This document shows, piece by piece, positions 13,614 through 34,883 of a DNA stretch of 64,000 nucleotides (the first letter of the stretch is position 1; the number at the start of each line of letters is the position of its first letter). The notes under the pieces are model-generated. The model was not told where the DNA came from and did no database searches. It saw nothing but the letters and a program-made list of their open reading frames with translations. The DNA comes from an uncultured Spirochaetia bacterium. GTDB lineage: Bacteria > Spirochaetota > Spirochaetia > SZUA-6 > Bin103. The stretch is taken from the NCBI GenBank assembly GCA_958296075.1, contig CATQHW010000005.1:73270-137269 (forward strand). The letters run 5' to 3'. The translations under genes and the position numbers were made by a program.

Positions 13614-13665
13614 CGGTTACTCCTCTCGGTTACCGGGAAACGCCGTTCCCGCAGGCGTCGGCGAC

Positions 13666-16463: not shown

Positions 16464-16467
16464 CGGG

Positions 16468-17430: not shown

Positions 17431-17499
17431 AACGTTTCAGTCTACGGGGTCGAGCGGTGACCGACAACCGCCCGAAGGCCGCGGACGGGGTACGGCGCT

Positions 17500-19577: not shown

Positions 19578-21938
19578 TCACGGGGAGAAGGTCGAATCCC
19601 AGACGTTGCCTTCCCCGGGCGTGTACTGGCCTGTCCTGATGCGGGCGATTTCATAGTCAGGCAATGACGTGATCGCAACGCACGTTCCGTCCAGGAACGC
19701 CCCGCGTTCCGCGAACGAAAAATCCAGGTTGTCGAAACCGGACTGAACCTGACGCCAGCGGGCGGGAAGGTCGGCGGCATCCGCTGGCACGACGTGCAGG
19801 AAGAACGGATCATGCACGTCCTCCGCCACGCACGGATCTCTGAGATACGTCAACGCGTTTCCAGCAAGATAGAGGTCGAAGATCGAGCGCGCCGCCGGCG
19901 CCCCGTAATCGCCGGCCAGGATCGACCGGTACGCCGACCGATACGGATGGAGCCGCTGCTCGGCGATCTCCGCCTTCCAGAGCGGGCCGTACGCGGGGAA
20001 ATACTGGCCGGTCGTGATATGGCCGATCCGGTAACCCGGCAGCGTAACGACCGCCAAGCATCTGCCGTCCAGGATGACGCCGCGCTCCGAAAAGGTAAAG
20101 TCCAGGTTGTCGAAACCGGACTGAACCTGACGCCAGCGGGCGGGAAGGTCGGCGGCATCCGCTGGCACGACGTGCAGGAAGAAACCGGCCTTCACGTCCT
20201 CTGCGGTGCACGGCTCCTTGAAGTACGCGAGCGCGTCGCCGTAGAGATAGATATCGAAGTGCGAGCGAACTACCTGATCTCCCGCAAGGGACGCCGAGCC
20301 GGACGGCCCGCCGGCCGCAGTGATCCGGAATATCACGCCGTCGTTCAGGTCCGCGACGAGTTCCACGCCCGGCAAGGCGCCCAATTCATCGAATACGTAG
20401 TCGTAATTACGAGCGCGAAACGAGTTCTCGAACAAGACGACATACGCCGATTCAGCAGGATCGCGGTTGGCAAGCTGATCCGTGACGTCGGCGAGAGAGA
20501 GGCTGATCGTCCAGACGCGGCGCAGCTCGGTAAGGAAATAGAGCGCCTGAGGATCGCTCGACCAGACGGTGCCGTCCAGCCGATTGGCGTTCAGATACCG
20601 GATGACGTCGGACTCGGTCCAACCCCTGGACGTGTAGCCGCTGCCGTCATCCAGCCACACCCTGGTAGCGTTGTAGGTCGCTCCGACCTGCTGCACCAGC
20701 CACAGCGAAACGACGATCGAGGCGACGACCGGAACCGCTTTTCCGATCTTCTTCGATGCCGCCGCGTTGCGGGCATGAGCGTTCGACATGAGTCCGTCCA
20801 GAACCATCGTCGCCGCTACCAGCAGCGGCGGAAACAACGGCAACAGATATCTGACCGCCAGCATCGTGTCGGCGAGCGGCAGATATATCGCCAGAAAGAG
20901 CGAGTACGCGGCGACGAAGACTATGGAAACGGTCAGTACGGTGCGGTTCTTGCGGAGGAATCCGGGCCGGTACCGCGCGAGTGCGTACCCGGCGCCGATC
21001 GCCGGCGCAGCCAGGACCGCCAGCTTCGCCGCGGTCGCGGTTACCGTGGCGGCTCCGGCCGGGCCGATGCTGGTAATGCTGCCGATCGCGCCGTTCAGCA
21101 CGTCGAATCCCGTTGGCCCCAATAACCACAAGGCGAATTCGTCGGTCGCGCGATGGAGGCTGATCAGACCGGAAAATCCATCTGGAAACTGTGATCCGAG
21201 AACCGATCCGATGACCAGCAGATTGCGCATTATCCATACGCCGACCGGCGCCATGGAAGCGACCGACCAGATCGCGGTGTCTCGGAGCCTGGTGCGAATT
21301 ACGATGTCGTTCCGCAGGAGGAGCACCAGCGCCCCGGCGCCGATCATGACCCCGCCCAGGTAGCGGGTCAGACATGCGGCGGCGGCCGCGGCCGCCGCCA
21401 GCAGGAGCGCGAGCACCTTCCCGCTGCTCAGGAACCGGTCCAGCAGCGAGAGCGCGATCACGATGAACAGGATGCAGACGACTTCCGTCCACGCATGAGC
21501 TGCCGCGGAGGCCAGTGCAGGCGACAGGGCGCACGCGCAGCCGGCCCACACGGCGAGCAGCGGCGACCGGACATGGCGTTTCAGCCACGCGGCGACCACG
21601 AAGACGGTCAACCCGAACGCGGCGGCGTTGACGTAGCCGGCCGCGTCGATGACATCGATGCCGAACAGACCGACGGCGGCCAGCAGCAGCGGGAAGAGTG
21701 GAGCGGCGCCCTGGTACCGGGTTCCGTTCCATTCGAGGAGCCCGTCTCCGGCCAACAGATTTCGAGCGACCGATATGTATGAACCGGAGTCCCAGGTCAG
21801 CCCAACCCCATGATTGGCCTCCCGCAGCAGGATGAGCGCTGCGCCGAGCACGCCGAGTGCGGGCACCGCGAACCGGGCCATGTCGTTCGACAACGCGGCG
21901 CGGCGCGGCGTTCGACGCGACCGCACGTTGGCGTTCAT
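19578..21938 (-). CDS. GT-C fold polyprenyl-phosphate-sugar-dependent glycosyltransferase (ArnT/PMT, GT39/GT83-like) with two C-terminal Cys-repeat modules
   Basis: N-terminal polytopic region with the first-loop motif GLTWDSGSYISVARNLLAGDG and more than 10 TM helices. The C-terminal about 240 aa are two tandem copies of a module with consensus F.YL.G..L.Y.K.PC...D....FFLHV.P....DLP......GF.NLDF.F...G....G.C.A...LP.Y.I..I.TGQY. Confidence 0.7.
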   Translation of the reverse strand: MNANVRSRRTPRRAALSNDMARFAVPALGVLGAALILLREANHGVGLTWDSGSYISVARNLLAGDGLLEWNGTRYQGAAPLFPLLLAAVGLFGIDVIDAAGYVNAAAFGLTVFVVAAWLKRHVRSPLLAVWAGCACALSPALASAAAHAWTEVVCILFIVIALSLLDRFLSSGKVLALLLAAAAAAAACLTRYLGGVMIGAGALVLLLRNDIVIRTRLRDTAIWSVASMAPVGVWIMRNLLVIGSVLGSQFPDGFSGLISLHRATDEFALWLLGPTGFDVLNGAIGSITSIGPAGAATVTATAAKLAVLAAPAIGAGYALARYRPGFLRKNRTVLTVSIVFVAAYSLFLAIYLPLADTMLAVRYLLPLFPPLLVAATMVLDGLMSNAHARNAAASKKIGKAVPVVASIVVSLWLVQQVGATYNATRVWLDDGSGYTSRGWTESDVIRYLNANRLDGTVWSSDPQALYFLTELRRVWTISLSLADVTDQLANRDPAESAYVVLFENSFRARNYDYVFDELGALPGVELVADLNDGVIFRITAAGGPSGSASLAGDQVVRSHFDIYLYGDALAYFKEPCTAEDVKAGFFLHVVPADAADLPARWRQVQSGFDNLDFTFSERGVILDGRCLAVVTLPGYRIGHITTGQYFPAYGPLWKAEIAEQRLHPYRSAYRSILAGDYGAPAARSIFDLYLAGNALTYLRDPCVAEDVHDPFFLHVVPADAADLPARWRQVQSGFDNLDFSFAERGAFLDGTCVAITSLPDYEIARIRTGQYTPGEGNVWDSTFSP
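19723..19805. repeat. 83-bp perfect direct repeat, copy A (inside the GT-C gene)
   Basis: tccaggttgtcgaaaccggactgaacctgacgccagcgggcgggaaggtcggcggcatccgctggcacgacgtgcaggaagaa is identical to 20101-20183. The flanks have diverged. Confidence 0.95.
20101..20183. repeat. 83-bp perfect direct repeat, copy B
   Basis: Identical to 19723-19805. The offset is exactly 378 bp (126 codons), so the two copies are in the same reading frame. Confidence 0.95.
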
Positions 21939-21950
21939 GGCGGCGATCGG

Positions 21951-22652
21951 CTATGAGCGCTTGCGGAAGACGGCAAGGAAACTCGAGCCGATGAGAGCCA
22001 CCAGCGGCCCGCCGACACCCCGCAGTCGCATCCCCCACGGCGGAAAGATCGAGAGCCATTCTACCGGTTCGAGTCCGGCGCGGTCCGCCGCCGCGTGCAT
22101 CCGGGACGGTGGATGGTGGATCAGGTCGGATGCGGAATGCCGCCGGCGGTCGAGGATGCGCAAACCTGCGTCGGCGGCGCGGTGGACCCATGCCTTGCGA
22201 TTGGCCCAGGCGATTATCAGCCGCCCTCCGGCGCGCAGCACCCGCGCCGTTTCGCGCAGCACGCGCTCGACATCAGCGGCGCTGCACTGCTGGACCATCT
22301 CGACATTCACCACGACGTCCACGGTAGCGTCCGCCAACGGCAGATCGGTCGCGTTGCCGCGCAGCGCATGCAGTCCGTTCCGTCCGGCCTGCTCGCACGC
22401 CGCGCGATCCAGGTCCACGCCGGTGACGCGGCGCCCGGCCCGGACCAACGGCAGCGTCATCAAGCCGGAGCCGCAGCCGACGTCCAGGATCGTCCCGGAG
22501 CCGCCGCCGACGGCGGCCAACACGAACTCTCGTTCGCGCAGAAACCAGCGTTCGGAGATATAGCCGCATGCCCTGGGGCTGTTTTCGCCAAAACGCTGCC
22601 GCAGCGCCTCGTAAATCTTCTGGTCTCTGGGGTCAGCCTCGGTCTTGTCCAT
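21951..22652 (-). CDS. class I SAM-dependent methyltransferase
   Basis: Motif I ILDVGCGSGLMTLPL, then RVTGVDLD and DVVVNVEMVQ. Confidence 0.8.
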   Translation of the reverse strand: MDKTEADPRDQKIYEALRQRFGENSPRACGYISERWFLREREFVLAAVGGGSGTILDVGCGSGLMTLPLVRAGRRVTGVDLDRAACEQAGRNGLHALRGNATDLPLADATVDVVVNVEMVQQCSAADVERVLRETARVLRAGGRLIIAWANRKAWVHRAADAGLRILDRRRHSASDLIHHPPSRMHAAADRAGLEPVEWLSIFPPWGMRLRGVGGPLVALIGSSFLAVFRKRS

Positions 22653-22688
22653 GACTATGACTATGCTCCGTCAGACTAAAGGCGCGTT

Positions 22689-23648
22689 TTAGAAATCCGC
22701 CAGATACCGGCACAACCGCGGGCCTGCGCGGTCGGTTAAGAAGTCCGGCAAGGTCCGCCAGAGTTTCTGCGCTACCCGGTAGCGGCGGTACGGATCGACC
22801 GGCTTGTCGCTCAGCCACAGGACCGGCACCGGACCGGCGCCGAAGTTGCGCTTGAAACGGTAGGTTCCACTGCCTGCCGGCGACCGTCCGAAATCGAGGA
22901 TATCCGCGCCGTCGTTCGCGGCTTGCTCAACCATGGCCCAAAACAGGAGGTTGCCGGGGCAGTCAGCGCTGTGATACGCTCCCGACCACGGCACCCAGGC
23001 GATCGGGCCGTCGCGCAGCCACAGCAAGCCGGCCTGCGGAGCTCCGTCCACGCGGTTGCGAACCACCAATGTCCGCGCTCCCATCTCCGTTATCAACCCC
23101 TCGAACAACGCCGCCGGCAGCATCGGCGCGCCATGCCGCGCGTGGGCCAGGCGAAGCATGGCGCAAAACGCCTGCAGGGCGCCCGGACCGGTCTCTTCCG
23201 CGGCGGCGAGCCCGGCCTTGCGAGCGCGCCGAACCGCCTTTCGCGCCACGCGGTTGAGTCCCCGTTCCCATACCGCTTCGCGAGCGTGGCCAAAGGCGGC
23301 TAGATCGATCCTGAGAACGGCGGGCGAGCCCGGCCGTAGTTCCCCTTCCGGGCGCGGCGCCGCCAAGGCCCGAATGTTGAACGGACGGCCCTGCACCTCG
23401 CGCGCGAGCTCCTGCGCAGCGGCGGCGTCCAGGTCGGAATAGTTCAGACCCGGCAGATACGCGAATACCGGCCGGCCGGCGAGTGAGGGAACCACGGCGA
23501 ACCGGCCGGCCTGCCGCCAGCGATAGACGCCGCATGATACCGACCGCCACGCGGCGACGAAGTCGGCGCTGTGCCGCAGGGTCAGGCGCCGGTCGTCGTG
23601 CGCTCCACGATACGCAGAACCACCGGCAAGGTCGGGGTACGTCTTCAT
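22689..23648 (-). CDS. FemAB-like / Acetyltransf_6 GNAT-fold transferase
   Basis: About 320 aa with C-terminal GADILDFGRSPAGSGTYRFKRNFGAGP (family pattern ...Y.FK..FG). Earlier it has KAVRRARKAGL, typical of FemAB/BioF2-like GNAT proteins. Confidence 0.6.
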   Translation of the reverse strand: MKTYPDLAGGSAYRGAHDDRRLTLRHSADFVAAWRSVSCGVYRWRQAGRFAVVPSLAGRPVFAYLPGLNYSDLDAAAAQELAREVQGRPFNIRALAAPRPEGELRPGSPAVLRIDLAAFGHAREAVWERGLNRVARKAVRRARKAGLAAAEETGPGALQAFCAMLRLAHARHGAPMLPAALFEGLITEMGARTLVVRNRVDGAPQAGLLWLRDGPIAWVPWSGAYHSADCPGNLLFWAMVEQAANDGADILDFGRSPAGSGTYRFKRNFGAGPVPVLWLSDKPVDPYRRYRVAQKLWRTLPDFLTDRAGPRLCRYLADF

Positions 23649-23706
23649 GACGAGGGCCCTTCCCCGTGCTCCTGCGTCGCGGGTGGCGTGCGGTGGACCA
23701 TGCCTA

Positions 23707-23880
23707 GATCATAGCCGCCGTGCCCGCCGGCGTCCACAATGGCGTGCCCGTCACGGCGAGAACGCCGCGACGGAGCTGCCGCTCGGCGAATATCACCCTC
23801 CAAAGTTCCTCCTCCGGCAGGTACTGGCCGGTGCTGATGCGGCCGATCCGGTAGTCGGCGGCCAGCGCAATCCAGGTCAT
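23707..23880 (-). pseudogene. 3' remnant of a third GT-C/Cys-repeat gene
   Basis: The last 58 codons of ORF 23704..24837, WIALAADYRIGRISTGQYLPEEELWRVIFAERQL, align with CLAVVTLPGYRIGHITTGQYFPAYGPLWKAEIAEQRL of the 786-aa protein. The DNA is also similar (tactggccggt..tgat..ggccgatccggta). Everything upstream is replaced by the PDDEXK_9 pseudogene. Confidence 0.6.
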
Positions 23881-23930
23881 GGCGGCCGGCCACGCCGCGC
23901 CATGAAGCGTTCGACTCGAGGCGAGCGCGC

Positions 23931-25675
23931 TCAGACATCGGCGGTCTTCTCGACCACGGCGTCGCAGTGGACCAGCTCCCAGCCGTGGAACACCAGCGCC
24001 AGCCCGGTGAAGCGGACCGACCGGTACTGCCGCGCCAGCCGCTCGTCGGCCGCATAGCGCCGCACCTGCGCCGTCGCCTCCGCCACCTGCGCCGCGTTCG
24101 CTTGCTCCTGCTTCAGATACTTCAGCTCGATCACGTAGCCGTGGCGTATGCTGGTATAGCGCTGCAGGTGCGGCTCCAGGCAGATGTCGGCGTAGCCGCC
24201 GCCCAGCTCCCGCTCCGAGTGGAATACGAAGTGCTCGGTGGCGCTCAGATAGGCTGCCAGGAAGCCCTGGATCACCTTCTCCCTGGAGGTAGTCGCGGAT
24301 CGCCGTCTGCCGGGCGATCGCTGCGCTCACAGGAACTCCACCACCGGCCGCCATGCGCCCCGGTAGGCCATCTCGTGCACCAAGCGGCCGAACGCATACA
24401 GGTCGACCGAGAACACCCCCACGTCGCGGTAGCCGTCGCGCAGGAAGGCGTACATCAGCCGCCGGACGGTCTGGTTGGGTATCCCCAGCCGCGGCCTGCC
24501 GTCGCGCACCTCGCGGATGCTGAGCAGACCGAAGAAGTGCAGCAGCGACAGGAAGTGCTCGCGCTGATTCAGTTGCTCCAGTGGGAAGCCGCCGGTGCTT
24601 TCGCTGTCGGCCCAACCCTCGCCGATGACGCGGCGCAACAGGTCGAAGTTGCCGTTCAACTGCCGGTTGACCGTGAGCAGGTGGCGCAGCTTGCCGTAGT
24701 CGATACGCACGTTGGTATCGATCAGATCGTCCGGCGGTTCCTCGTTCGGAATCGACTCCTTGAGGTAATAGAGCACCATGTCGGTGTTGTAGAGATCGTT
24801 CGGCGCGGCCTTGGCGAAGCGGTAGCCGTTGTACCACTCGCCCATCACCGCCATCGCCTCGTCCACGTTCTGGTCGAATACGCCGTGGTCCCGGTAGGTC
24901 GAAAGGATGCCGCGCACCTCCGCCTCGGTGAAGCCGAGCAGCTCGTTGAACTTCCGGCGCAGGCTGAGGTTGGCGGCGATGTTGAAGCCGCTGGTCACGT
25001 CGTCCATGGTGATCGGCGACACGCCGGTGACGAACAGGCGCTCGATGGCGCCGGCGCCGGCGCCGGCCTTGAGGGTGGCGAAGAAGTTGCGGTAGAAGCC
25101 GCCGCCGTGGGTGAAGGAGTGGTACGCCTCCGCCCGCGATGGGCCAGGATGGTGTTGGCGAAGTTGTCGTACTCGTCGATCAGCACGTACAGCGGGATGC
25201 CCTGCTCGCCGGCGTAGTCAAACAGCTCGTTCAGCCGGCCGTCGATGGCAGGGAGCGCCAGGATGCGGTCGATCACCGGCTGAGGAAACAGGTCCCGATT
25301 CCGTTCCAGCGCAGAGCGGAGTTTGATGAAGCAGTAGGTCTCGAAGCGCTCGCGCAGCGTCTCCAGGGTGTCGTCGAAGGCGGAGAAGTCGAAGCGCAGG
25401 ACGACGTACCGGTTGCGGTTCGGCGTCGGCCGGCGCCCGACGTCGGTGCCGGCGAACAGGGTCTCGAAGCTGTCAGCGCGGGTGCGATCGTAGTAGTGAT
25501 CGAGCAACGACACCCAGCACGACTTGCCGAAGCGGCGGGGGCGGATCAGAAAGGCGTAGCGCTCCTGCTCCAGGTCATGCAGGAAGCGGGTCTTGTCGAC
25601 GTACAGGGTGCGCTCGCGACGCATCGCTGCGAAGTCCGCCCAGCCGTAGGGGATCTGCGGATATGCGCTGCTCAT
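23931..25675 (-). pseudogene. AAA-ATPase_like + PDDEXK_9 (DUF1703) family gene inactivated by about 3 frameshifts
   Basis: Three consecutive ORF pieces are colinear with the intact paralogue at 40288..42090. They are the lower part of 24995..26482 from ATG 25675 (MSSAYPQIPYGWADF...DEYDNFANTILAH), then 24327..25022, then 23931..24275. There is a 1-nt deletion near 25133, and two further frame changes at 24276-24330. Confidence 0.8.
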
Positions 25676-25861
25676 CGATTCCGTGCGCTGGTGCCGGCGA
25701 CCAGGATCAGCCCGCCCGCGATCAGCATAGGGTCGGCCGACCCGTTTCGTCGAGACGCGGCCGCCGGCACCGCAAAAGACCCGCGGGCTCGCCAGGCAGG
25801 TGGCGCACGTGTACGATGAATCGTTCTGGCAGCTCCTTCCGTTCGTTCCAGGAGACCTCCG

Positions 25862-26872
25862 ATGCAGTGGGCTAGGCCGTGGACCTGGGCGCTCGCCGCG
25901 ACCGTCAGTCTGGCGCTGTTCGGAGTGGTCGCCACGCGGCTCGACGCGGCTTCCCTGGCCGCCGCGGCGGCTTCGTTTTCGTGGCCTCTCGTCGCGGCGG
26001 GGTCGGCGCTCCTGGTGGCGGCGCACCTGTTCGGCGCCCTGCGGACTCATCTGATCGCCGAGCGCGGCCCGTTTACCACCGCCATACGGGTCACTGCCTG
26101 GCATGCAGTCTGGCTGATCGCGCTGCCGATGCGCCTGGGAGAAGTGGCCTGGGTCGTGGCCATGCGCAAGGCCTACGGGTGGAACCCGGCCACGGCAGTC
26201 GTCTGCGCCCTGGTACAGCGGCTGCTGGACTTGGCGGTCATCGCCGCCTTCCTGCTGCTGGCGACGCCGGCGGTTCTCGGCCTGGGCCGGGATGGGGCGC
26301 CGCTGATCGCCGCCGCGGCCGCCACCGCCTGCGGGCTGGCGCTCGCCGGCGCCGTGACGCTGCGGGTCTGGCTGCGCCTGATCGCCCGGCTGGTGATCGC
26401 GACCGGCCGTCCGCGCGGTTGGCGATTGCGTGTTTTGCATCACCTGCGCCAAGGTCGGCGGTGGCTGGAAAGCGTCCATCATCGGCGCATCATGCGACTA
26501 TGCCTGATGCCTACGGCGCTGTCGTGGCTGGCGGTCTTCGGCGGCCATTGGCTTCTCTGCCAGGCGATCGGCCTGCAGGTGGCCGTGGCCGAACTCCTGT
26601 TCGCGGCCGCCGGCAGCAATCTGATAACGGCGCTCCCGGTGCAGTCCATCGGCGGGTTCGGGCTGATGGAGGTGGGGTTCACCGGCATCCTCGCCTGGTT
26701 CGGCTCCCCTGCCGATACCGCCGCTGTCGCCGCCCTGACAATTCGTTTCGCCACCTGGGTCGGGACCGGCCTGTTCTGGCTGATCGGCCTGCTGTCGGTA
26801 CGGGTGCGGCGCGGCGTTCAATGCCGCTCTCCGGCGATCGCCGGCGGTTTACTCCGGCAAGACGAGGAATGA
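25862..26872 (+). CDS. LPG_synthase_TM / UPF0104 flippase-like membrane protein (MprF N-terminal-domain family)
   Basis: 336 aa with about 8 TM helices. Motifs RLGEVAWVVAMRK and ALPVQSIGGFGLMEVGFTGILAWFG are typical of this family. Confidence 0.65.
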   Translation: MQWARPWTWALAATVSLALFGVVATRLDAASLAAAAASFSWPLVAAGSALLVAAHLFGALRTHLIAERGPFTTAIRVTAWHAVWLIALPMRLGEVAWVVAMRKAYGWNPATAVVCALVQRLLDLAVIAAFLLLATPAVLGLGRDGAPLIAAAAATACGLALAGAVTLRVWLRLIARLVIATGRPRGWRLRVLHHLRQGRRWLESVHHRRIMRLCLMPTALSWLAVFGGHWLLCQAIGLQVAVAELLFAAAGSNLITALPVQSIGGFGLMEVGFTGILAWFGSPADTAAVAALTIRFATWVGTGLFWLIGLLSVRVRRGVQCRSPAIAGGLLRQDEE

Positions 26873-27753
26873 ATTGGCGCGGCGGCAGTAACGGTAAGGC
26901 ATTCGACGCGGCGGCGCACAAGATCGAAGCGAGGCGCTTGCCCGCCAGGATCGCCGTGCTTTCGATCGACGTGGAGCACGACTACAACGGCGACGGAAGT
27001 GCGGCGTTGAACCGGCTGCCCGATCTGCTGACCGCGGTGAGGAGCGCAGGTCTGCCGTTGACGGCGTTCGTGGAAGGCCGCCTGTTCGTCGAACGCCCGG
27101 ATATCTGTACCTGCCTGGTCGAGGCCGATGCTGACCTGCACCTCCATTGCCATGACCATAGACATCCGGGTGATACGGCGGAGAGCCTGGCGGCGGGCAT
27201 CGACGCTTTCGGGAGTTTCATCGGCGCCGCGCCGCGCGGGTATCGTGCGAACACCTACGGCTTGACGGAAGAGATATTTCAAGAGCTCGTGGCGGCAGGC
27301 TTCGCCTGGGATTCCTCCATCCTGCCGGGAATCGGCCTCGGCTGCCGGCCGGACGCTGCGTTTCGACGCGGCGACTGGTTTCTGTTCGACGACTCGCTGG
27401 CGGAGTATCCGGTGGCGAGCTGGCGGTTCGGGAACCTGAGAACCATCCCCTTTATCTGCTCCTATCGGCAACTGATAGGACCGTTTGCGGAGTCGCTGCT
27501 CGAGCGCGTGGCGACGTTGCCCGAGCTGGTGATATATGACATGCACATGGTCGATCTCGTGCCGGACGGCCGCCTCCGGAGGTCACCGCTGCCGCTGTGG
27601 TTGAAGGGCGCCCACGCGCTGACGCGGTGGCGCCAGCGGGGATTCGAAGACCTGGCGGCCCTGGGCCAGCGCTTGCGCCGCCAAGGCTATCGCTGGACCA
27701 CGATGACGGCGTTACATGAATTGTCGATGGAGAACCAGGGAAGCGGTGTATGA
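26869..27753 (+). CDS. polysaccharide deacetylase (CE4 / NodB-fold) family protein
   Basis: In-frame ATG at 26869 overlaps the upstream stop (ATGA). Motifs VLSIDVEHDY (motif 1 type DVED), LHLHCHDHRHP (His pair) and GYRANTYGL (motif 3). No signal peptide is visible. Confidence 0.7.
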   Translation: MNWRGGSNGKAFDAAAHKIEARRLPARIAVLSIDVEHDYNGDGSAALNRLPDLLTAVRSAGLPLTAFVEGRLFVERPDICTCLVEADADLHLHCHDHRHPGDTAESLAAGIDAFGSFIGAAPRGYRANTYGLTEEIFQELVAAGFAWDSSILPGIGLGCRPDAAFRRGDWFLFDDSLAEYPVASWRFGNLRTIPFICSYRQLIGPFAESLLERVATLPELVIYDMHMVDLVPDGRLRRSPLPLWLKGAHALTRWRQRGFEDLAALGQRLRRQGYRWTTMTALHELSMENQGSGV

Positions 27754-27777
27754 GCTCAAGACCGGGTCTGTCGGCGG

Positions 27778-30700
27778 TCACCTCCGCACGTTGTCTTCCG
27801 CGCGGCGCGGCGGGTACGACGGCTGCAGGAGGTACGGCTCCTCGTTCGGAAGCAGCGAGAGCGTGGCGGTCTCCGTAAACGCGGGGATGCGGCCGACGAC
27901 CTTGCCGTTCTGCGTGACCTCCACCGGTGCGTCGAACCAATCGGTCGGCCGCCTGAATATCAACGTCAACGGCTGATCGAACCGGTCATTGTCCAGACCG
28001 TCCGCCAGCACGAACTCGATCCGGCGCGTCACTCCGTCCCGTTCGATCACCTGCATGGTAACCTCGGCGTTCTCCCGTTCCCGCAGGTAGAGAACCACGT
28101 CGTTCATCGGGGCGACCCAGAAGTCGCGGGCGGCGATGGCTCGAAGGTCCGCCTGAAAGTCTTCCCAGTCGTAGAATCCCCAGCCCTCTCGGCTGCCGAT
28201 ATTGTGGTACACGGGAATGATCCAGGCCGTACTGTGGAGCGCGTGGTCCAGGATGGGGACCAGCTCTCGGGTGTCGTTGATGCACCAGTCGCACTGCCGG
28301 AAGTCGATGCTCTCCATGGTCAGGGCGGGCAGGAAGAACCAGTTATCGGGGGTCGTTTCGGAATCGGGAACGATGTACGGGGTCTGATCCGCCATCCAGA
28401 ACGACAGGCGGCCGGCCAGAAAACCCGCGTCGGCCAGCGCCTGCTGGGTCTCCGCTTCGCCGCCGGCCCCGCGCGGATAGGCGTAGGCTACCGGCTCCAA
28501 CCCCAGGCGCTCCATCACCTCGAAGGAGAGTCGGAACGAATCGTAGGCCTGAGCGTAGGTGAGGGCGTCGTGGTCGACGTGCCAGTGCCCGTGCCCGAAG
28601 AAGCCGAACCCGTGGGCGGTGAGCGACAGAGCGTACTCGATCTGATCGTCGGTCAGGCGGTCGTACAGGTCGCCGGGAACGACGTCCGGGATGAGCTCCG
28701 TCAAGTCGTGCTCGACCCAATCGGGCACCCGGTCTTGGTACATCTGGGTGACCATCTCGTAGTCCAGCACCAGCCCCAGGTCCAGTGCCAGGTCGTCGAC
28801 GGCGTTGGGCGCCCGCGGCGAGCCGTCGTACGTGACGGAGATGGCCGCGTCGTGGTCGTCGAACCACTTCGCTATGGTGATCTCCGGAGAATGGGGAGGC
28901 GGCTTGCTGACCGTGAACGCCGCCTCCCAGAGCTGCTCCCCGCCGCCGCCGGCGGCATACTGGCCGGTGCGGATGCTGGCGATTTCATAGGCGGGAAGCG
29001 GGACCTCCGCCCGGCATCTCCCGTCTGACGCCAAGCCGCGGTTGCGGAATTCGAAGTCCAGGCTATCGAACCCATGCTCCCGGCGATGCGCGGGCAGGTC
29101 GGCGGCGGCGGCCGGTCGGAGGTGCAGGAAGAACTCCGCCTGCGCGTCCCGCGCGGCGCACGGTTCCTTGCGGTAGACCAGCGTGTTCCCGAGCAGGTAG
29201 ACGGCGAAGTCCGGTCGCACCGCCGGTACGACCAGCGTCACGTTCCAGAGCTGCCCGGCGCGCGGCGTAAACTGGCCGGTTGCCAAGCGGGCGACCGGGA
29301 AGTCGGGAAGATCGCGCACCGCTACGCAGAGCCCGCGGTAGCGAAACCCGTGGCGGTCGAAGTCGAAGTCCAGGTTGTGGAACGAGTACCCGGAGACGGG
29401 GAGGTCGTGGTAGTTGCCCGGCACGACGTGCAGGAAGAACCTTGCCTCGACGTCAGCGTCTCGACACCCGTTCTTCGTGAAGATCAGCCGGTCGGCGGCG
29501 GCGTCCAGGTACACCGTGAATTCGGAGCGAAGGCCGATGCTGGCATCTTTCAGAAGCGGCTGCGTGATGCCGCCCGCGTCCAGTGGCGCAGTCGGCGCGC
29601 TGCGGCGCAGGATGACGCCATCATCCAGGGCGGCCACGACCGCCATTCCCGGCATCCGCAGCAATGTCTCCAGACCGTAGCCATAGCGCCCGGAGTCCCG
29701 ATAGAACCAGGCGACGTAGCGCTCCCGGCCGGCGGCCTCCTCCGCGGAGAGCCGAGCCCACGCTCGCGAAAGCTCCTGCGGAAGCTGGTAAGCGCCGGTA
29801 TCCGCCGCCGTCAGAAGGTAGATCGCGGCGCCGTCGGTGCCGTGGATGGCGCCCTGGGGGCGGCCGGCATTCAGGTAACGAACCACGTCGGACTCCGACC
29901 ACTGCCGCGACGCGTAGCCGCCGCCGGTCGCACGCCGCTGTTCGACGTGATCGGCAGTCGCTCCGGCCTGCGGCGCGAGCCACAGCGCGACCAGCAGTGC
30001 GGCGGCGAGTGGCCGCCGCGCCAGCCATCGTCCCGCCGGTCGAACCCGGGAGATCAGCTCATCCAGGACCAGGGTTGCCGTTACCAGCAACGGCGGGAAC
30101 ATCGGCGTCAGGTGCCTGAGCTCGAGCGCGGCGCCGCCTGCGGGAAGGGCGATCAGCAGATAGAGCGCGTACGCCGAAACGAACACGAGAGGGACGGACA
30201 CGTAGGAAATGGCCGTCGCCGTGTGATTTCCCCGCAGGAATCGGCAGCGGCGCCGCGCGAGCGCGTACCCGACGCCGGCCACCGGTACCAGCAGGACGGC
30301 GATCCGCAACGCGACCGCGGGCACGCCGGCACCCGGCATTCCCGCGGCCAACCGGTCCAACAGCCCGAGTCCGGTTCGTCCAATGAGCCACAGGATGAAC
30401 TCACCGGTGGCGGTGTGGAGACTCCGCAGCGGCAGGAATCCGCCGGGACTGGCCGTTCCAAAGGACGCTCCGCTCACGACCAGATTTCCCACCAGCCATG
30501 CGCCGATGGGTGCCGCCGATACGCCGATCCAGACCGCCGCGGCCGCCAGCCTGCTGCGCGCTACGGTGGTTCTCCGTACCAGCAGGAGCAACGCGCCACT
30601 GCCGATCAGAGTCACGCCGGCATAGTGTGTCAGGCCGGCGGCCGCGGCCGCCGCCGCCGCCAGGACGAGGAGCGGCCTCCTGCCCGTGCGCAGAAAGCGG

Positions 30701-32685
30701 TCCAGCGTGGACAGCGACACGACGGCGAACAGGATGAAGGGGATTTCGGGCCACACGTGCGCCGCCACGCCGGCCAGCGAGGTCGACAGGGCGCAGGCGC
30801 AGCCCGCCCAGACGGCCACCAACCGAAACCGAACGCGGCTTCTCACCCACGCGGCGACGGCGTACGCCGTCAGACCGAAGGCGGCGGCATTGAGGTATCC
30901 CGCCGCCGTGACCAGGTCCGCACCGAACAGGCCGGCAGCCGCCAGGGTCACCGGGAAGAGCGGGCCCGCTTCCCGAAACGGGGTGCCGAGGAACGTGACC
31001 AGCCCAGCGCCGTCCAGCAGATTGCGCGCGGCCGACACGTAGAGCGCCGAGTCGGACGTCAGCCCTGGCCCGTAGGCGGTTTCCCACAGCAGAATCAGCA
31101 GCGCACCGACCCCGCCGAGCGCCGCCAGGAACATCGGCAACCCGTCGAGCCGGGCTGCGTGGCGAACGATGCTGCTGCCCGCCAGGGCGCGCCGTGCGGC
31201 GCTCGCGGCGCGTTTGGTGGTGTCCATCTCCATGACCGCCGCGAGCGCGTAGCACAGCGCCAGCGCGTACGGCAGGAACAGGTAGCGGGCGCGGCGATAC
31301 ATCAGATCGTCGGGTATCAGGAGGTGCACGGCGGCGAGCGCCATGAGCGCCGCGATCCACCACGTGCGGCGCAGCAGCGCCGGCCGGTTCCGGCGAGCCT
31401 GCAGGGTAGCGAAGCAGGCGGCCGCGGCGCAGGAGAGGGCCGCGACCCACGTCAGGATTCTGCCGGCCCGCACGCTCCCCAGCCCCATCTGCCAGTACGG
31501 CTCGAAATGCACGACCAGCGGGGCTCCCGCCGGCGCGCGATACCGGTCCGCATACTCGGGAATCGGCAGCCGGCGAGTCAGTTGCTCGAGACCGGGGACG
31601 TCCGTGACGAACTCCCGAACCGTCTGGATCAGGACACCGAGCACTTTGCTGCTCAAGACCCTCCACGTCAGCGCGTCCTGCGGCGCCCCTTCGCATGCTG
31701 CGCGCCACGCGAACCAGTCGGGAACGAGACACGCCTCGAGCGCCATCTTGGCCGCCTGACCCAGGGCGTAGGCAGCGGCGAAACCGGCGATATAGAGCCC
31801 AACGCACCCGCCGGCCAGCCGTGCCCGGCCGGCGGGTGCGGGTTGGTGGTCGTATCCGAAATAGACCAGCATGCCGATGAGCGTGACCATCACGATGCCG
31901 TGTCCGTCGCCCAACCACAGGTATGACGAAACCATGCCGGCGGCGAAGCAGACCAGCCGCGTCAGCCGCAGGCGGGTCTCCGGCGGTGTCGGAGACGGCA
32001 GCCGCGCGCGCATGGCGACGACCAGCGCGACGGACGTCCATACCGCCCAGGCGTACGGTATGCCGATGGCGACGCCTGACAACCAGCGGATGCCGGAGAA
32101 CAGGCAGCCGAAGACGATCAGCGGCGCAAGGATGGCCAGCGTCCGGGGCGCGAGCAGCAGCAGCGCCGCCGCCAGCGCGATCCAACCGGCGTACGCGGCA
32201 TACCGTATCAGGATGCGGATGTCCTGCACGGAAAGGCTGCGCAGCATGACGGCATAGAGCGCCTTGCTGCCCCACCAGTATTGCGTTGAGGAGAAATATT
32301 CGTCTACGTAGAGCCCGTTTACCGCGTCCGCCAACTCGCCGCAGTAATCGTAGTAATCGCCTCGCGGCGCCAACACCTTCGGCAGCAGAGCGTCGCGGAA
32401 TCCGTTGCCGCCCTCGGCGAGCGGCTGGTGCGCTCCGGCCAGGACCATCGCCGACAGCTTGCAGTCCTCGAATGGTGTATTGAATCCTGCCGCGAAGCCC
32501 TCGTCCGGCCGATCGGTCGCGATCTCGGCGGCGAACTTCTGCACCGCGGCGCGAAAGTAGATCTGGTTGCCGAGGTGGTGCAGGAAGATGAACAGCGCCG
32601 TGCCGAGTAGCGCCGTCGCCGTATAGACGGCGACCGGCGCGAGGGGCGAGCGCCGCCGCGGCGCCCGCCCCTCGTCCGCGCCCAT
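27778..32685 (-). CDS. 1635-aa multidomain membrane protein: unknown polytopic module + GT-C glycosyltransferase + 2 Cys-repeat modules + CE4 deacetylase domain
   Basis: I chose the ATG at 32685-32683 because it shares one base with the GT2 stop (TGATG).
- About 32685-31200: unknown TM module.
- About 31150-29540: colinear with the 786-aa GT-C protein, roughly 50% identity by eye (GLTSDSALYVSAARNLLDGAG; VAVWAGCACALS).
- About 29535-28905: two repeat modules (FFLHVVPGNYHDLP, FFLHLRPAAAADLP).
- 28880-27778: CE4 motifs ISVTYDG, HGHWHVDH, AYPRGAG. Confidence 0.75.
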   Translation of the reverse strand: MGADEGRAPRRRSPLAPVAVYTATALLGTALFIFLHHLGNQIYFRAAVQKFAAEIATDRPDEGFAAGFNTPFEDCKLSAMVLAGAHQPLAEGGNGFRDALLPKVLAPRGDYYDYCGELADAVNGLYVDEYFSSTQYWWGSKALYAVMLRSLSVQDIRILIRYAAYAGWIALAAALLLLAPRTLAILAPLIVFGCLFSGIRWLSGVAIGIPYAWAVWTSVALVVAMRARLPSPTPPETRLRLTRLVCFAAGMVSSYLWLGDGHGIVMVTLIGMLVYFGYDHQPAPAGRARLAGGCVGLYIAGFAAAYALGQAAKMALEACLVPDWFAWRAACEGAPQDALTWRVLSSKVLGVLIQTVREFVTDVPGLEQLTRRLPIPEYADRYRAPAGAPLVVHFEPYWQMGLGSVRAGRILTWVAALSCAAAACFATLQARRNRPALLRRTWWIAALMALAAVHLLIPDDLMYRRARYLFLPYALALCYALAAVMEMDTTKRAASAARRALAGSSIVRHAARLDGLPMFLAALGGVGALLILLWETAYGPGLTSDSALYVSAARNLLDGAGLVTFLGTPFREAGPLFPVTLAAAGLFGADLVTAAGYLNAAAFGLTAYAVAAWVRSRVRFRLVAVWAGCACALSTSLAGVAAHVWPEIPFILFAVVSLSTLDRFLRTGRRPLLVLAAAAAAAAGLTHYAGVTLIGSGALLLLVRRTTVARSRLAAAAVWIGVSAAPIGAWLVGNLVVSGASFGTASPGGFLPLRSLHTATGEFILWLIGRTGLGLLDRLAAGMPGAGVPAVALRIAVLLVPVAGVGYALARRRCRFLRGNHTATAISYVSVPLVFVSAYALYLLIALPAGGAALELRHLTPMFPPLLVTATLVLDELISRVRPAGRWLARRPLAAALLVALWLAPQAGATADHVEQRRATGGGYASRQWSESDVVRYLNAGRPQGAIHGTDGAAIYLLTAADTGAYQLPQELSRAWARLSAEEAAGRERYVAWFYRDSGRYGYGLETLLRMPGMAVVAALDDGVILRRSAPTAPLDAGGITQPLLKDASIGLRSEFTVYLDAAADRLIFTKNGCRDADVEARFFLHVVPGNYHDLPVSGYSFHNLDFDFDRHGFRYRGLCVAVRDLPDFPVARLATGQFTPRAGQLWNVTLVVPAVRPDFAVYLLGNTLVYRKEPCAARDAQAEFFLHLRPAAAADLPAHRREHGFDSLDFEFRNRGLASDGRCRAEVPLPAYEIASIRTGQYAAGGGGEQLWEAAFTVSKPPPHSPEITIAKWFDDHDAAISVTYDGSPRAPNAVDDLALDLGLVLDYEMVTQMYQDRVPDWVEHDLTELIPDVVPGDLYDRLTDDQIEYALSLTAHGFGFFGHGHWHVDHDALTYAQAYDSFRLSFEVMERLGLEPVAYAYPRGAGGEAETQQALADAGFLAGRLSFWMADQTPYIVPDSETTPDNWFFLPALTMESIDFRQCDWCINDTRELVPILDHALHSTAWIIPVYHNIGSREGWGFYDWEDFQADLRAIAARDFWVAPMNDVVLYLRERENAEVTMQVIERDGVTRRIEFVLADGLDNDRFDQPLTLIFRRPTDWFDAPVEVTQNGKVVGRIPAFTETATLSLLPNEEPYLLQPSYPPRRAEDNVRR

Positions 32686-33872
32686 CACCGCTCGCGCGTC
32701 GACCCGCGCATGGTCCCCTGCGTCGCCAGCAGCGCGTAGAAAAAGGCGGAGAATATCAGCTCCACGCCACAGATCAGGAGCGTAACGGACGGAACCGCCG
32801 CGCGCATCCGCACCTCGATGTTCGGGCTGCCCATCTGTGCCCATACGAACAGGCTCCAGATGCTTCCCGCCGCTCCCACCAGCACCAGAATGATCCCCGT
32901 CACCACGCCGACGTCCAGGAGCAGGCCGCTCTTCGGGTTCAGCCGCGCCGACCAGCGTCCGTCAGACAGACCGATGTTCTCGCAGAACGCGCTCGCCAGT
33001 AGTGCGAAGATGATCAGTTGCAACCCGCACACCACGAACGCCGCGCCGAACAGCATGGTGTACGATCCGTAGCTGCCGCCCGCTTCCACGGGGTACAGAA
33101 TCGGTATGAGTATCGCCAGCGCTCCGGCCGCGAACAGCATACATCCCGGATAGAGATACAGCCAGCGGGGCGACAGCATCAACAGGAGCCGAAGATGACG
33201 CCAGCCGTCCCGCCACACTCGCAGGTGCGAAGCGCGCTCCGGATCGAGCGCGTGGCGCTGTACCACCGGCACTTCGGCTATGCGCATGTCGGCCTTCACG
33301 GCCTTGACGATCATCTCGCTGGCCGCCTCCATGCCCGGGCACCGCAGCGCAAGGGAGCGCGCGCTGCAAGTCTTGAATCCCCGCAGACCGCAGTTGAAGT
33401 CCCTGACCGGCGAGCGGAACAGCACCTTGCCGACGCCGGACAGGACCGCGGTGCCGGCGTTGCGCAATCGGCTCGATGCGGCGACGCCGGCCGCGAACCG
33501 GTTCCCGAACACGAAGTCGTAGCCTTCGCGCAGCTTTTCGTAGTACGGCTCCAGCGATCCCAGGTCGTGCTCGCCGTCGCCGTCTCCCAGGATGATGAAG
33601 CGGCCGCGGGCGGCGTCGATGCCGGCGTTGATCGCGTTGCCGTATCCCGGACGCGACTCGACGACGACCCGCGCGCCGGCGCCTTGGGCCAGATCGGCCG
33701 AGCGGTCGCGGCTGTCGTTGTCGACCACGACGACCTCTCCGTCGATGCCGTTCCGGTCCAGGAAGCCGCGGGCTTCGCCGACGCAGTGAGCGATCGAGCC
33801 CTCCTCGTTGCGGCACAGGATCACGATCGTGAGGTCGTGCCGCGCTCGCGACGGACCGGCGGGTTCGGGCAT
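32685..33872 (-). CDS. GT2 glycosyltransferase with C-terminal TM helices (polyprenyl-phosphate sugar synthase type: ArnC/GtrB/CsbB/DPM1-like)
   Basis: LTIVILCRNEEGSI, VVVDNDSRDRS, GYGNAINAGI and IILGDGDGEHD (the DxD). About 4 C-terminal TM helices are present. Confidence 0.8.
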   Translation of the reverse strand: MPEPAGPSRARHDLTIVILCRNEEGSIAHCVGEARGFLDRNGIDGEVVVVDNDSRDRSADLAQGAGARVVVESRPGYGNAINAGIDAARGRFIILGDGDGEHDLGSLEPYYEKLREGYDFVFGNRFAAGVAASSRLRNAGTAVLSGVGKVLFRSPVRDFNCGLRGFKTCSARSLALRCPGMEAASEMIVKAVKADMRIAEVPVVQRHALDPERASHLRVWRDGWRHLRLLLMLSPRWLYLYPGCMLFAAGALAILIPILYPVEAGGSYGSYTMLFGAAFVVCGLQLIIFALLASAFCENIGLSDGRWSARLNPKSGLLLDVGVVTGIILVLVGAAGSIWSLFVWAQMGSPNIEVRMRAAVPSVTLLICGVELIFSAFFYALLATQGTMRGSTRER

Positions 33873-33878
33873 GGCGGA

Positions 33879-34883
33879 TCAGGACTCCGGAGGAGCGATG
33901 TCGGCGGCGTGAACCCAGCCGAAGTTGCGGTAGCTGCCGCGTACGCGCACGTCGTACCAGTCGCCCACGCGGCCCAGCACCGACAGCCGGTCGCCCGGCC
34001 GCAGATGCAGCCGCACCCCGGACCGGCGGTCGGGGGATGCGTGAACGGCGATGCCGGCGCGCGGCGAGCGCAGGAATTCGGTCCGCGGCGCCACGAGCGA
34101 TTGGCGGTCGTGCGGGTCGCGCTGCTCCAGGTAGGCCAGCAGGCCGTCGGCAAGCCCGCGCGCCGCCGCCTCCGGCCGCTCGTGCAGGAACGCGCGGTCG
34201 CGGGCGTTGCTCAGGTAGCCGAGCTCGAAGATCGTCGCCGGTGTGGTGGGGGCGATGGCGTGCCGGTAGCGGCCGCTGAAGGCGTAGTAACCGCGCATGT
34301 TGATGGTGATTCCGTTCAGGTCCTCCGGCAGGCCGGTGGCCGGCCCGTAGTGGTCGCGCAGCGCAGCGACCAGCAGGCGCGAGGCCGGGGAGGCGTACCA
34401 CGGCGGCGACGCCTTGTAGCCGCGCACGTCGGTATTCGTGCTGCCGTCGGCATGGATTGCCACGAAGGCGTCGGCGTCGAATCCCGGCGGGATGGTGGCC
34501 GGCAGCACCTCGACCACGACGCCTTCGGCCTCCAGGATGGCAGCGACCGCGTGGACCACCGCGCGGTTGATCTCCACCTCACCGATGCCGCCGGCATACG
34601 CCCCGGTAGAGTTGCGCAGACGGCGCAACTCGTCCGGCAGCAGCGCCGCGTCCAGGTGCCCGATCTGCAGGCCGACCCGCCACGGCGCATCGGCGCCGCG
34701 CACCGCGGCCGGCTGGCCGGCGGTTTCGCCGCCGCGCGGCGCGGCGGACCGGGCGGGCTGGCTACGGAAATACAGGATCGCCCACGAGACCGTCGCGGCG
34801 GCCACCAGGACGAGCACCGCGGCAGCGGCCGGCCGCACGCGCGTAACGGACTTCACGGACCCCGACAGTATAATGCCGTTCAT
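33879..34883 (-). CDS. membrane-anchored N-acetylmuramoyl-L-alanine amidase (Amidase_3) with C-terminal SH3b domain
   Basis: N-terminal anchor AAAAVLVLVAAATVSWAILYF. Amidase_3 motifs LQIGH, EVEINRAVVHAV and FVAIHADGS. The C-terminal GDRLSVLGRVGDWYDVRVRG...GWVHAADI is SH3b-like. An alternative GTG start lies at 34856. Confidence 0.75.
   Translation of the reverse strand: MNGIILSGSVKSVTRVRPAAAAVLVLVAAATVSWAILYFRSQPARSAAPRGGETAGQPAAVRGADAPWRVGLQIGHLDAALLPDELRRLRNSTGAYAGGIGEVEINRAVVHAVAAILEAEGVVVEVLPATIPPGFDADAFVAIHADGSTNTDVRGYKASPPWYASPASRLLVAALRDHYGPATGLPEDLNGITINMRGYYAFSGRYRHAIAPTTPATIFELGYLSNARDRAFLHERPEAAARGLADGLLAYLEQRDPHDRQSLVAPRTEFLRSPRAGIAVHASPDRRSGVRLHLRPGDRLSVLGRVGDWYDVRVRGSYRNFGWVHAADIAPPES

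Follow-up and report, generated by a model that had tools for sequence, protein, structure and literature searches.

A Spirochaetia gene cassette that may tailor, flip and transfer a lipid-linked hexosamine

The Arn pathway (PmrHFIJKLM) relies on the family 2 glycosyltransferase (GT2) ArnC, the deformylase ArnD, which is of the carbohydrate esterase family 4 (CE4) type, the flippase ArnE/F and the GT-C glycosyltransferase ArnT. Three-component systems, such as GtrA/GtrB/Gtr*, CsbB/GtcA/YfhO and PpgS/Rv3632/Rv3779, comprise a membrane GT2, a flippase and a GT-C enzyme. In mycobacteria, the GalN pathway also requires a de-N-acetylation step. A glycosyltransferase, a deacetylase and a stand-alone MprF-like flippase form the experimentally characterised systems HexSDF of C. 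difficile (PMC10128005) and GpgSDF of P. aeruginosa (PMC12713373), for which deacetylation of a lipid-linked N-acetylhexosamine was shown by experiment (PMC10128005, PMC12713373). In archaea, UPF0104 genes occur beside AglD-like GT2 and PMT/STT3-like genes, and beside polysaccharide deacetylase and glycosyltransferase genes, and a role as glycosylation flippases was predicted for their products (Makarova et al. 2015, PMC5898192). Finally, the PplT preprint lists fusions of the LPG_synthase_TM (PplT) domain to glycosyltransferases and methyltransferases. The present study deals with a 64,000-nucleotide stretch of DNA from an uncultured Spirochaetia bacterium (contig CATQHW010000005.1 of assembly GCA_958296075.1, positions 73,270 to 137,269), hereafter the window, and with the cassette of envelope glycan-modification genes located at its positions 19578-34883.

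On balance, this locus probably makes and tailors a hexosamine linked to a lipid, on the cytoplasmic side of the inner membrane; after flipping, the sugar would be handed to an acceptor in the envelope. The enzyme families were established by the analysis, and we infer the order of the steps and the substrates. In this model, a GT2 anchored by transmembrane segments would load a lipid phosphate, most probably polyprenyl phosphate, with an N-acetylhexosamine. A cytoplasmic CE4 enzyme would take off the acetyl group, by analogy with ArnD, HexD and GpgD, and a FemX-like enzyme would acylate the amine so exposed, the probable donor of an amino acid being an aminoacyl-tRNA. The product would be methylated by an S-adenosylmethionine (SAM)-dependent methyltransferase and the tailored lipid flipped by an LPG_synthase_TM protein of the MprF type; the FemX-like enzyme and this flippase would together represent a 'split MprF' acting on a sugar lipid. 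On the other face, ArnT-like GT-C modules, possibly along with an orphan membrane domain (the N-domain), would transfer the sugar to a periplasmic acceptor. Repeats carried by the large proteins may bind this acceptor, and a fused periplasmic CE4 domain would deacetylate the acceptor or the product outside. A surface polysaccharide, a lipopolysaccharide (LPS)-like glycolipid or peptidoglycan are possible acceptors.

The genes concerned, and the parts of the two large proteins, are the following (aa, amino acids).

33879-34883, minus strand: Amidase_3+SH3_3 protein, 334 aa
32685-33872, minus strand: GT2 with C-terminal transmembrane segments, 395 aa
27778-32685, minus strand: fusion protein, 1635 aa, counted from the ATG that overlaps the upstream stop codon
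31216-32685, minus strand: orphan multi-transmembrane N-domain of the fusion (about 480 aa), residues 1-490
29560-31164, minus strand: GT-C membrane module of the fusion with a periplasmic alpha/beta domain, residues 508-1042, first-loop Asp D545
28906-29559, minus strand: two copies of a repeat of about 105 aa in the fusion, residues 1043-1260
27778-28905, minus strand: probable CE4-type domain of the fusion with a C-terminal beta domain, residues 1261-1635
26869-27753, plus strand: stand-alone CE4-like protein, 294 aa
25862-26872, plus strand: LPG_synthase_TM protein, 336 aa
22689-23648, minus strand: FemX/FemAB-like protein, 319 aa
21951-22652, minus strand: SAM methyltransferase, 233 aa
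19578-21938, minus strand: GT-C+repeat protein, 786 aa, with GT-C in residues 1-553 and two C-terminal repeats in residues 554-786 (19581-20279)

This layout agrees with that described in an earlier, sequence-only reading of the window (three packed genes on the minus strand, a converging ATGA-coupled pair, then further FemAB-like, methyltransferase and GT-C genes), each gene of which was recovered at the same coordinates from the listing of open reading frames and their translation. Read from the sequence, the amidase and GT2 genes are separated by a 6-nucleotide (nt) gap (tccTGAtccgccATG), the GT2 and fusion genes share a TGATG overlap (cggTGATGggc), and the LPG_synthase_TM and stand-alone CE4 genes share an ATGA overlap (gaggaATGAat). 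The plus-strand pair converges on the 1635-aa gene, with 24 nt separating the stop codons. Scans for promoters, terminators, tRNA genes and Rfam families added nothing for the locus.

The sequence-only reading had assigned the GT2, Amidase_3-SH3, LPG_synthase_TM, methyltransferase and FemAB-like proteins to their families, and all these calls pass Pfam gathering scores. The GT2 matches Glycos_transf_2 (PF00535, 1.3e-19). In NCBIfam it comes closest to AglJ (3e-31), a dolichyl-P hexose transferase (2e-19) and PpgS (2e-19), all under equivalog cutoffs; GT2_TM_C (PF26629) is precomputed on an identical protein, and four hydrophobic segments are found in residues 244-383. The enzyme is predicted to load an (N-acetyl)hexose onto a lipid phosphate. 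The 336-aa protein matches LPG_synthase_TM over almost the whole model (PF03706, 1.1e-28, 101 bits for a cutoff of 33.4, model positions 1-298 of 302) as well as the TIGR00374 flippase-like domain (2.4e-7). As a member of the UPF0104/PplT family, that of the MprF flippase domain, it is a predicted flippase for the tailored lipid-linked sugar. The FemX-like protein matches Acetyltransf_6 (PF13480, 1.3e-14) and, under the equivalog cutoff of 260.35, TIGR03019 (2.9e-28, 98.9 bits). A profile built from eight orthologues retrieved from the PDB aminoacyl-tRNA-dependent enzymes only, namely FemX (2.5e-5) and an aminoacyl-tRNA-dependent peptide synthase (0.011). With neither hydrophobic segment nor signal peptide, this GNAT-fold protein would be cytoplasmic, where it is predicted to catalyse an aminoacyl-tRNA-dependent N-acylation. 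The methyltransferase is a class I SAM-dependent enzyme (Methyltransf_11, 2e-22) with one C-terminal hydrophobic segment (residues 210-228); NCBIfam gave no equivalog-level match, no signal peptide was found, and the protein is predicted to be cytoplasmic. As for the amidase, it is a membrane-anchored N-acetylmuramoyl-L-alanine amidase with Amidase_3 (5.9e-9) and C-terminal SH3_3 (4.9e-8) domains.

Both deacetylase candidates are divergent. The stand-alone protein scores under the PF01522 cutoff (E=0.0038, 17.6 bits, cutoff 23.1) and matches TIGR03006 over its full length (9e-6) with 25 bits for an equivalog cutoff of 276.2. Its profile, built from seven orthologues, aligns with PDB deacetylases via the His-x3-His motif (3qbu (HpPgdA), 5e-6; 3rxz, 1e-5), and the motifs IDVEHD, HCxDH (H93/H97) and PRGYRA are invariant. 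Thus, the homology and the Asp and His-x3-His metal motif that define CE4/NodB enzymes are both present. No signal peptide was found and, since the protein also has no hydrophobic segment, it is considered to be cytoplasmic. The C-terminal domain of the fusion is likewise sub-threshold for PF01522 (E=0.077, with the C-terminal 340 residues), and its profile had no match in the PDB. However, PF01522 is matched by 21 of 39 of its relatives (best 2.4e-7), and residues D28, H106, H110, H113, D114, Y144-P145 and H235 are invariant. Most of its 84 relatives are stand-alone proteins of 370-430 aa, with a lipobox-like LxxGC at the N-terminus resembling a lipoprotein signal consensus. It is therefore probably a divergent CE4-type domain with an extracytoplasmic (periplasmic) location.

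Among the searches of solved structures, only fold comparison placed the GT-C proteins. The 786-aa protein, a paralogue of the middle part of the fusion (44% identity to residues 508-1258, E=5e-174), scores under the PMT_2 cutoff (E=3.6e-4, 21.2 bits, cutoff 26.1), and neither it nor the GT-C family profile matched the PDB. No Pfam match was obtained with the 1635-aa protein; as single sequences, this protein and its four segments gave nothing usable against Pfam, NCBIfam and the PDB. The transmembrane half of the 786-aa protein has at least 145 relatives. Among 66 that were aligned, PMT_2 was matched by 23 and PMT by 15 (E<=1e-3), and D50, located in the first loop (LTWDSGSY) and aligned with D545 in the DS motif of the fusion, is at least 90% conserved. 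The AlphaFold (AF2) model of the 786-aa protein, computed from the family alignment, has a mean pLDDT of 91. In a Foldseek search of the PDB, its top match was ArnT (5ezm, E=5.4e-9, TM-score on the target 0.57), and almost all of the next 40 matches were GT-C enzymes (STT3, AglB, PglB, ALG9/12, DPY19, Pmt4, AftA/B/D, Emb). Both features of the GT-C superfamily, the fold and an acidic residue in the first extracytoplasmic loop, are therefore observed, and the model confirms the call at the fold level, for a divergent subfamily. As neither large protein reaches the gathering threshold of PMT_2 (PF13231) or PMT (PF02366), these GT-C modules are a divergent sister group of PMT_2/PMT rather than scored members.

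The sequence-only reading had asked for a model of the GT-C modules and for the first-loop Asp; an ArnT-like fold and the conserved pair D50/D545 were found. It had also tied its proposal to the placement of the large proteins and of the deacetylases by profile searches. Taken literally, this placement nearly failed, yet the calls were recovered by other routes: for the GT-C enzymes and for both CE4 domains, where the window proteins themselves score under threshold, support comes from relatives, from profile matches in the PDB and from the AF2 fold. The locus does contain the four functions that it had recognised, namely a GT2 loader, a cytoplasmic deacetylase, an MprF-type flippase-like protein and a GT-C enzyme.

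The 1635-aa protein had been described as a GT-C/CE4 fusion. Both parts are indeed there, but the description is incomplete: the protein has four parts, i.e. the orphan membrane domain, the GT-C module, two repeats and the CE4-type domain. The N-domain starts with a transmembrane helix, followed by a loop of about 110 aa with two invariant Cys and by about ten helices; it carries the motif YWWGSKALY. Elsewhere, it is found alone or ahead of 2-7 repeats in proteins of 900-1400 aa. As a single sequence it had no relative in Pfam, NCBIfam or the PDB, and none in Pfam and the PDB with a 43-member profile; tblastn against plasmids gave no match. An exhaustive HMMER search returned just 140 cluster representatives out of 1.84 billion. 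The AF2 model is confident (pLDDT 81, pTM 0.84), and the best Foldseek matches, ArnT (E=0.23) and STT3 (E=0.48), are not significant. The hhalign comparison of the N-domain with the GT-C transmembrane profile was negative once the repeats had been trimmed; untrimmed alignments were dominated by the shared repeats. Family-wide, the two Cys of the first long loop, one Pro, one Gly and few other residues are conserved, and the closer family additionally keeps H36, K141, K313, R464 and R467. The N-domain takes the place of GT-C beside the GT2 in three phyla and is fused to GT-C in Spirochaetia. Because it either replaces GT-C or is fused to it, the N-domain may be a new kind of transferase, or a partner handling the lipid donor or the acceptor. 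Its role is the least certain step of the pathway.

Each of the two large proteins has two copies of the repeat, the consensus of which is FFLHVxP..DLP..NLDFxF..C.A..LP.Y.I..I.TGQ. A hidden Markov model (HMM) of the repeat detects 1-7 copies in 147 of 249 fetched proteins, including nearly all of the GT-C subfamily; no relative was found in Pfam or the PDB. The repeat is beta-rich (beta strands in the AF2 model). With two conserved Cys as its signature, it is predicted to be extracytoplasmic and disulfide-bonded. Larger variants of the fusion (P0002-P0009, 2000-2240 aa) contain a second block of repeats and CE4, and loci L003 and L004 have second copies of the N-domain and GT-C parts, or carry them on separate, adjacent genes. 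Proteins P0019-P0022, which have an N-domain and 6-7 repeats, carry a precomputed, putative match to PF04301 (BioG/DUF452 esterase).

Conservation was assessed by a scan of GTDB species representatives (20 loci), by tblastn with eight window proteins and by gene calls on selected contigs. The 1635-aa protein has only 34 relatives among 5.8 billion sequences. The full set, composed of the GT2, fusion, CE4, LPG_synthase_TM, FemAB-like and methyltransferase genes and of one to several GT-C+repeat paralogues, was found in four 'Spirochaetia bacterium' metagenome-assembled genomes (MAGs; loci L001-L005), at 56-88% identity, and six to eight of the same families stand together in five Spirochaetia loci. 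Gene orientation varies in these relatives, some of which have a duplicated or split fusion gene. Outside Spirochaetia, three to four of the LPG_synthase_TM, CE4, FemAB-like and methyltransferase genes occur at 48-71% identity in two Gammaproteobacteria and in Nitrospirales, Vicinamibacterales and Azotimanducaceae MAGs, invariably beside N-domain+repeat genes; the LPG_synthase_TM copies in the cassettes of other taxa are 61-76% identical. In MAGs of Dehalococcoidia, Thermodesulfobacteriota and Binatia, a GT2 gene of the same type (62-70% identity) immediately precedes an N-domain+repeat gene, and GT2 copies of 54-85% identity adjoin N-domain or GT-C genes in other taxa. A minimal set is seen in L025, with a GT2, a small EamA-like protein and a GT-C+repeat protein. 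In L026 and L027, stand-alone relatives of the periplasmic CE4 domain adjoin repeat-bearing proteins. Neighbourhood conservation, proposed as a check by the sequence-only reading, is therefore observed in four Spirochaetia MAGs for the locus and in at least seven further taxa (50-70% identity) for its sub-modules, which invariably adjoin repeat-bearing proteins.

Several of these loci have features of their own. L024:1-22358, from a 5.38-Mb MAG, contains at least 12 head-to-tail GT-C+repeat paralogues of 645-785 aa, several of which overlap by about 30 nt. In the gammaproteobacterial MAG OZ242023, at least six N-domain+repeat genes follow in a row directly downstream of the LPG_synthase_TM, FemAB-like and methyltransferase genes (L010/L011), and N-domain+repeat genes occur at seven or more places (also L013-L015, L017). 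At L023:16786-17916 (Vicinamibacterales), a short GT2 of 246 aa lies by N-domain genes and is followed by a DUF2304 small membrane protein, which we take to be a PpgS/Rv3632-like arrangement. At L026:9447-17221, UbiA, FAD_binding_4 and adh_short genes accompany GT-C+repeat genes and a stand-alone relative of the periplasmic CE4, a set resembling donor synthesis of the decaprenyl-phosphate-arabinose type (DprE1/DprE2-like), outside Actinobacteria.

Some of these genomes share a source assembly: ERZ25068400 for the Spirochaetia, Vicinamibacterales and L024 genomes, and ERZ19489113 for the window contig, L026 and L027. The mix of taxa presumably resembles that of marine sponge microbiomes. Because the accessory enzymes are 50-76% identical between phyla within one community, the cassette or parts of it have probably moved horizontally between co-resident bacteria. 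It is the orphan domain and the repeat, and not GT-C, that accompany the cassette from phylum to phylum.

The window itself has traces of rearrangement between the FemAB-like and flippase-like genes.

23935-25675, minus strand: decayed AAA-ATPase_like/PDDEXK_9 gene with about three frameshifts, PF09820 at 5e-37 on the N-terminal open reading frame
about 23780-23850, minus strand: remnant of a repeat domain, 24 residues long (DYRIGRISTGQYLPEEELWRVIF), detected by the repeat HMM with a domain E=4e-5

An intact paralogue of the decayed gene lies 15 kb off (40288-42099, minus strand; 603-aa frame, PF09820 3.6e-47 and PF08011 1e-14). In relatives, just 150-250 nt or so separate the FemAB-like and flippase-like genes, and the decayed ATPase gene is not present between them in L001 and L005; it is an insertion that stands outside the system. 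The 24-residue remnant suggests that a repeat-bearing gene was lost beside the pseudogene and left this relic. The window has a G+C content of 65-72%, and positions 20001-30000 (0.646-0.688) are slightly under the flanks at 16-20 kb and 34-40 kb (0.70-0.72), which is weakly consistent with a foreign origin of the cassette. Its flanks in the window are unrelated genes (permease, aminotransferase, MurB, MoxR/DUF58). Among them, two MoxR-type AAA_3 ATPase genes around DUF4129 and DUF58 genes (12660-17436, minus strand) form an unrelated MoxR/DUF58 system upstream of the cassette.

Several observations weigh against the proposed pathway. The evidence for its steps consists of sequence and model comparisons. 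HexS and GpgS, the synthases of the characterised triads, glycosylate glycerolipids and not polyprenyl phosphate. Enzymes of the PF13480 family can also use acyl-CoA, so that aminoacylation is only the likeliest option for the FemX-like protein. The first loop of the N-domain has no conserved acidic residue and its model no significant GT-C fold match; a transferase function of this domain is therefore a guess drawn from its neighbourhood. Lastly, the non-Spirochaetia loci with LPG_synthase_TM, CE4, FemAB-like and methyltransferase genes do not carry the 395-aa type of GT2, and the three non-spirochaete loci with this GT2 carry none of those four genes within 10 kb. Hence, the full chain occurs together only in Spirochaetia.

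Other explanations may be envisaged, the main rival being that the GT2, CE4 and flippase make a cationic amino-sugar membrane lipid, aminoacylated and methylated, as an end product altering membrane charge; the GT-C and N-domain proteins would then be separate and merely co-located. The characterised triads do exactly that (PMC10128005, PMC12713373), the flippase and deacetylase genes of the window are translationally coupled, and the LPG_synthase_TM, CE4, FemAB-like and methyltransferase genes occur in several taxa with neither the 395-aa GT2 nor any GT-C. However, these four tailoring and flipping genes are invariably found beside repeat-bearing membrane proteins. In addition, the GT2, with its C-terminal transmembrane domain, belongs to the Dpm1/AglJ/PpgS type and not to the GT4 or GT28 type of GpgS and HexS. 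Its gene overlaps the start of the GT-C fusion gene, and in four other taxa a gene of the same type immediately precedes GT-C+repeat or N-domain+repeat genes. This type of GT2 and its steady adjacency to GT-C and N-domain genes argue against an end-product lipid, which we consider rather unlikely. The sequence-only reading had pointed to peptidoglycan or a wall-linked polymer as the acceptor, with the co-transcribed amidase as a functional partner. In this view, the Amidase_3+SH3 gene, 6 nt upstream of the GT2 gene on the same strand, would be meaningful, and FemX-family enzymes classically act on peptidoglycan precursors. But the hint rests on the amidase, which adjoins the GT2 in two of the four related Spirochaetia genomes (L005, same arrangement; L003, convergent) and in none of the other taxa, and is missing from the cassette in L001/L002, in L004 and in all non-spirochaete loci. 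Furthermore, the amidase of the window borders an unrelated permease gene and may just flank an insertion site, and the L001 cassette sits in a polysaccharide locus, among epimerase, GT4, fn3, AAA_31 and Wzx genes. The hint is weak, and peptidoglycan or a wall-linked polymer as the acceptor, with the amidase as a partner, appears improbable. As a core component, the amidase was rejected, being beside the GT2 only in the window, L003 and L005; it is probably a neighbour of the cassette.

It may also be imagined that the repeat proteins are substrates, i.e. membrane-anchored surface arrays whose repeats would be glycosylated by GT-C with the tailored sugar. Arrays in which up to 6-12 paralogues with 2-7 repeats stand in tandem do resemble diversifying surface proteins, and the N-domain has no conserved acidic residues of the catalytic type. 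Against this, nearly every family member has these repeats fused to a bona fide GT-C enzyme, in the position usually taken by acceptor-binding modules, the repeats have no Ser/Thr-rich or sequon-like conserved feature, and many N-domain+repeat loci have no GT-C nearby; such a role is quite doubtful. That unrelated envelope genes were juxtaposed by chance is hardly credible at all. The pseudogene and the domain remnant show that the region was rearranged, and gene orientation differs among relatives. Nevertheless, six to eight families co-occur in five Spirochaetia loci and subsets of them in at least eight other genomes (50-85% identity), while genes of the window are coupled by overlapping start and stop codons. 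Contradicted by the recurrence of the gene set in other genomes, chance juxtaposition was rejected.

Returning to the proposed pathway, a bolder version of it is offered tentatively, as a possibility that we hold with low confidence. The N-domain would represent an unrecognised class of membrane transferase acting on lipid-phosphate sugars and the repeat a new acceptor-binding module, which together would install an N-aminoacylated, methylated hexosamine at the cell surface. The genes would form a horizontally mobile 'surface-disguise' cassette that passes among co-resident members of at least eight phyla or classes, in which arrays of paralogues (up to 12) would give diversity of acceptors and linkages. 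Apart from this version, two protein modules that had no annotation are now defined: a membrane domain with a confident model but no fold match, and the repeat of about 105 aa, which marks a network of GT-C enzymes, periplasmic deacetylases and membrane proteins. Among Spirochaetia, Gammaproteobacteria, Nitrospirales, Acidobacteriota, Chloroflexota and further taxa of the same metagenomes, sub-modules are 50-76% identical, which points to a common surface chemistry being selected for within one community. If true, this would be the first pathway to remove the acetyl group from a lipid-linked amino sugar, then to re-acylate the sugar with a FemX-type (tRNA-dependent) enzyme and to flip it with an MprF-type protein, all ahead of GT-C transfer. 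It would join three themes that have been studied separately, namely Arn/Gtr-type glycosylation, the amino-lipids of HexSDF/GpgSDF and aminoacylation by MprF.

How does the locus compare with the systems described so far? The order of functions matches that of the Arn pathway, and the 786-aa protein has its closest structural match in ArnT. In this sense, the Arn-like logic perceived in the sequence-only reading holds in outline. But the locus is no member of the pathway: no equivalents of ArnA, ArnB, ArnE or ArnF lie within 19.5-35 kb, and the GT2 scores 28.1 bits with the ArnC model, far under its cutoff of 529, so that membership was rejected. Here, the flippase candidate is of the MprF type (PF03706) and not an ArnE/F pair of the SMR type. 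The FemX-like enzyme, the methyltransferase, the probable periplasmic CE4 domain, the orphan N-domain and the repeats come on top of the Arn-like functions. Like the locus, the three-component systems pair a GT2 that is anchored in or associated with the membrane with a flippase and a GT-C enzyme. Their minimal form is seen in L025, with the same GT2 and GT-C+repeat families, and L023 has a GT2 with DUF2304; they differ in the family of the flippase, and the locus has extra cytoplasmic tailoring enzymes and a GT-C with novel repeats and fused domains.

HexSDF and GpgSDF resemble the locus by their flippase-like and deacetylase genes, which are coupled here, a likeness drawn from family descriptions. 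In those systems, the synthases are GT28-like and GT4 enzymes acting on glycerolipids, whereas the synthase of the locus is a GT2, of the polyprenyl-phosphate type; GpgD belongs to COG3233 and is not PF01522-like; the operons contain no GT-C, FemX-like enzyme or methyltransferase; and their product is a membrane lipid, whereas that of the locus would be a donor. With MprF, the locus shares the LPG_synthase_TM domain and the combination of a GNAT-fold transferase, predicted here to depend on aminoacyl-tRNA, with a predicted flippase. MprF itself is defined by PF03706 fused to DUF2156/LPG_synthase_C, and the 336-aa protein has PF03706 only; the transferase is separate and of the FemAB/Acetyltransf_6 type (PF13480), not a DUF2156/LPG_synthase_C domain, and its proposed substrate is a deacetylated sugar lipid instead of phosphatidylglycerol. 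The named families nearest to the FemX-like protein and to the cytoplasmic CE4 are the XrtA/PEP-CTERM FemAB protein TIGR03019 and deacetylase TIGR03006. In those exopolysaccharide loci, too, the two activities are found together, the functions of both families being predicted only. Equivalog status was rejected in view of the scores (98.9 for 260.35 bits and 25 for 276.2 bits) and of the context, no exosortase being seen among the window genes examined.

The archaeal UPF0104 neighbourhoods, which are predictions only, do not include the FemX-like enzyme, the methyltransferase, the N-domain or the repeats. No characterised system was found in the literature that adds to these steps both the N-domain and the repeats as well as FemX-like, methyltransferase and periplasmic CE4 enzymes, and no characterised cluster matched the whole locus, as the sequence-only reading had expected. 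Its view that no precedent existed was overstated for the sub-triads (HexSDF, GpgSDF, archaeal UPF0104), and stands for the whole combination. Most likely, the locus is a variant of the lipid-linked sugar modification systems, in which known steps are mixed with two undescribed modules.

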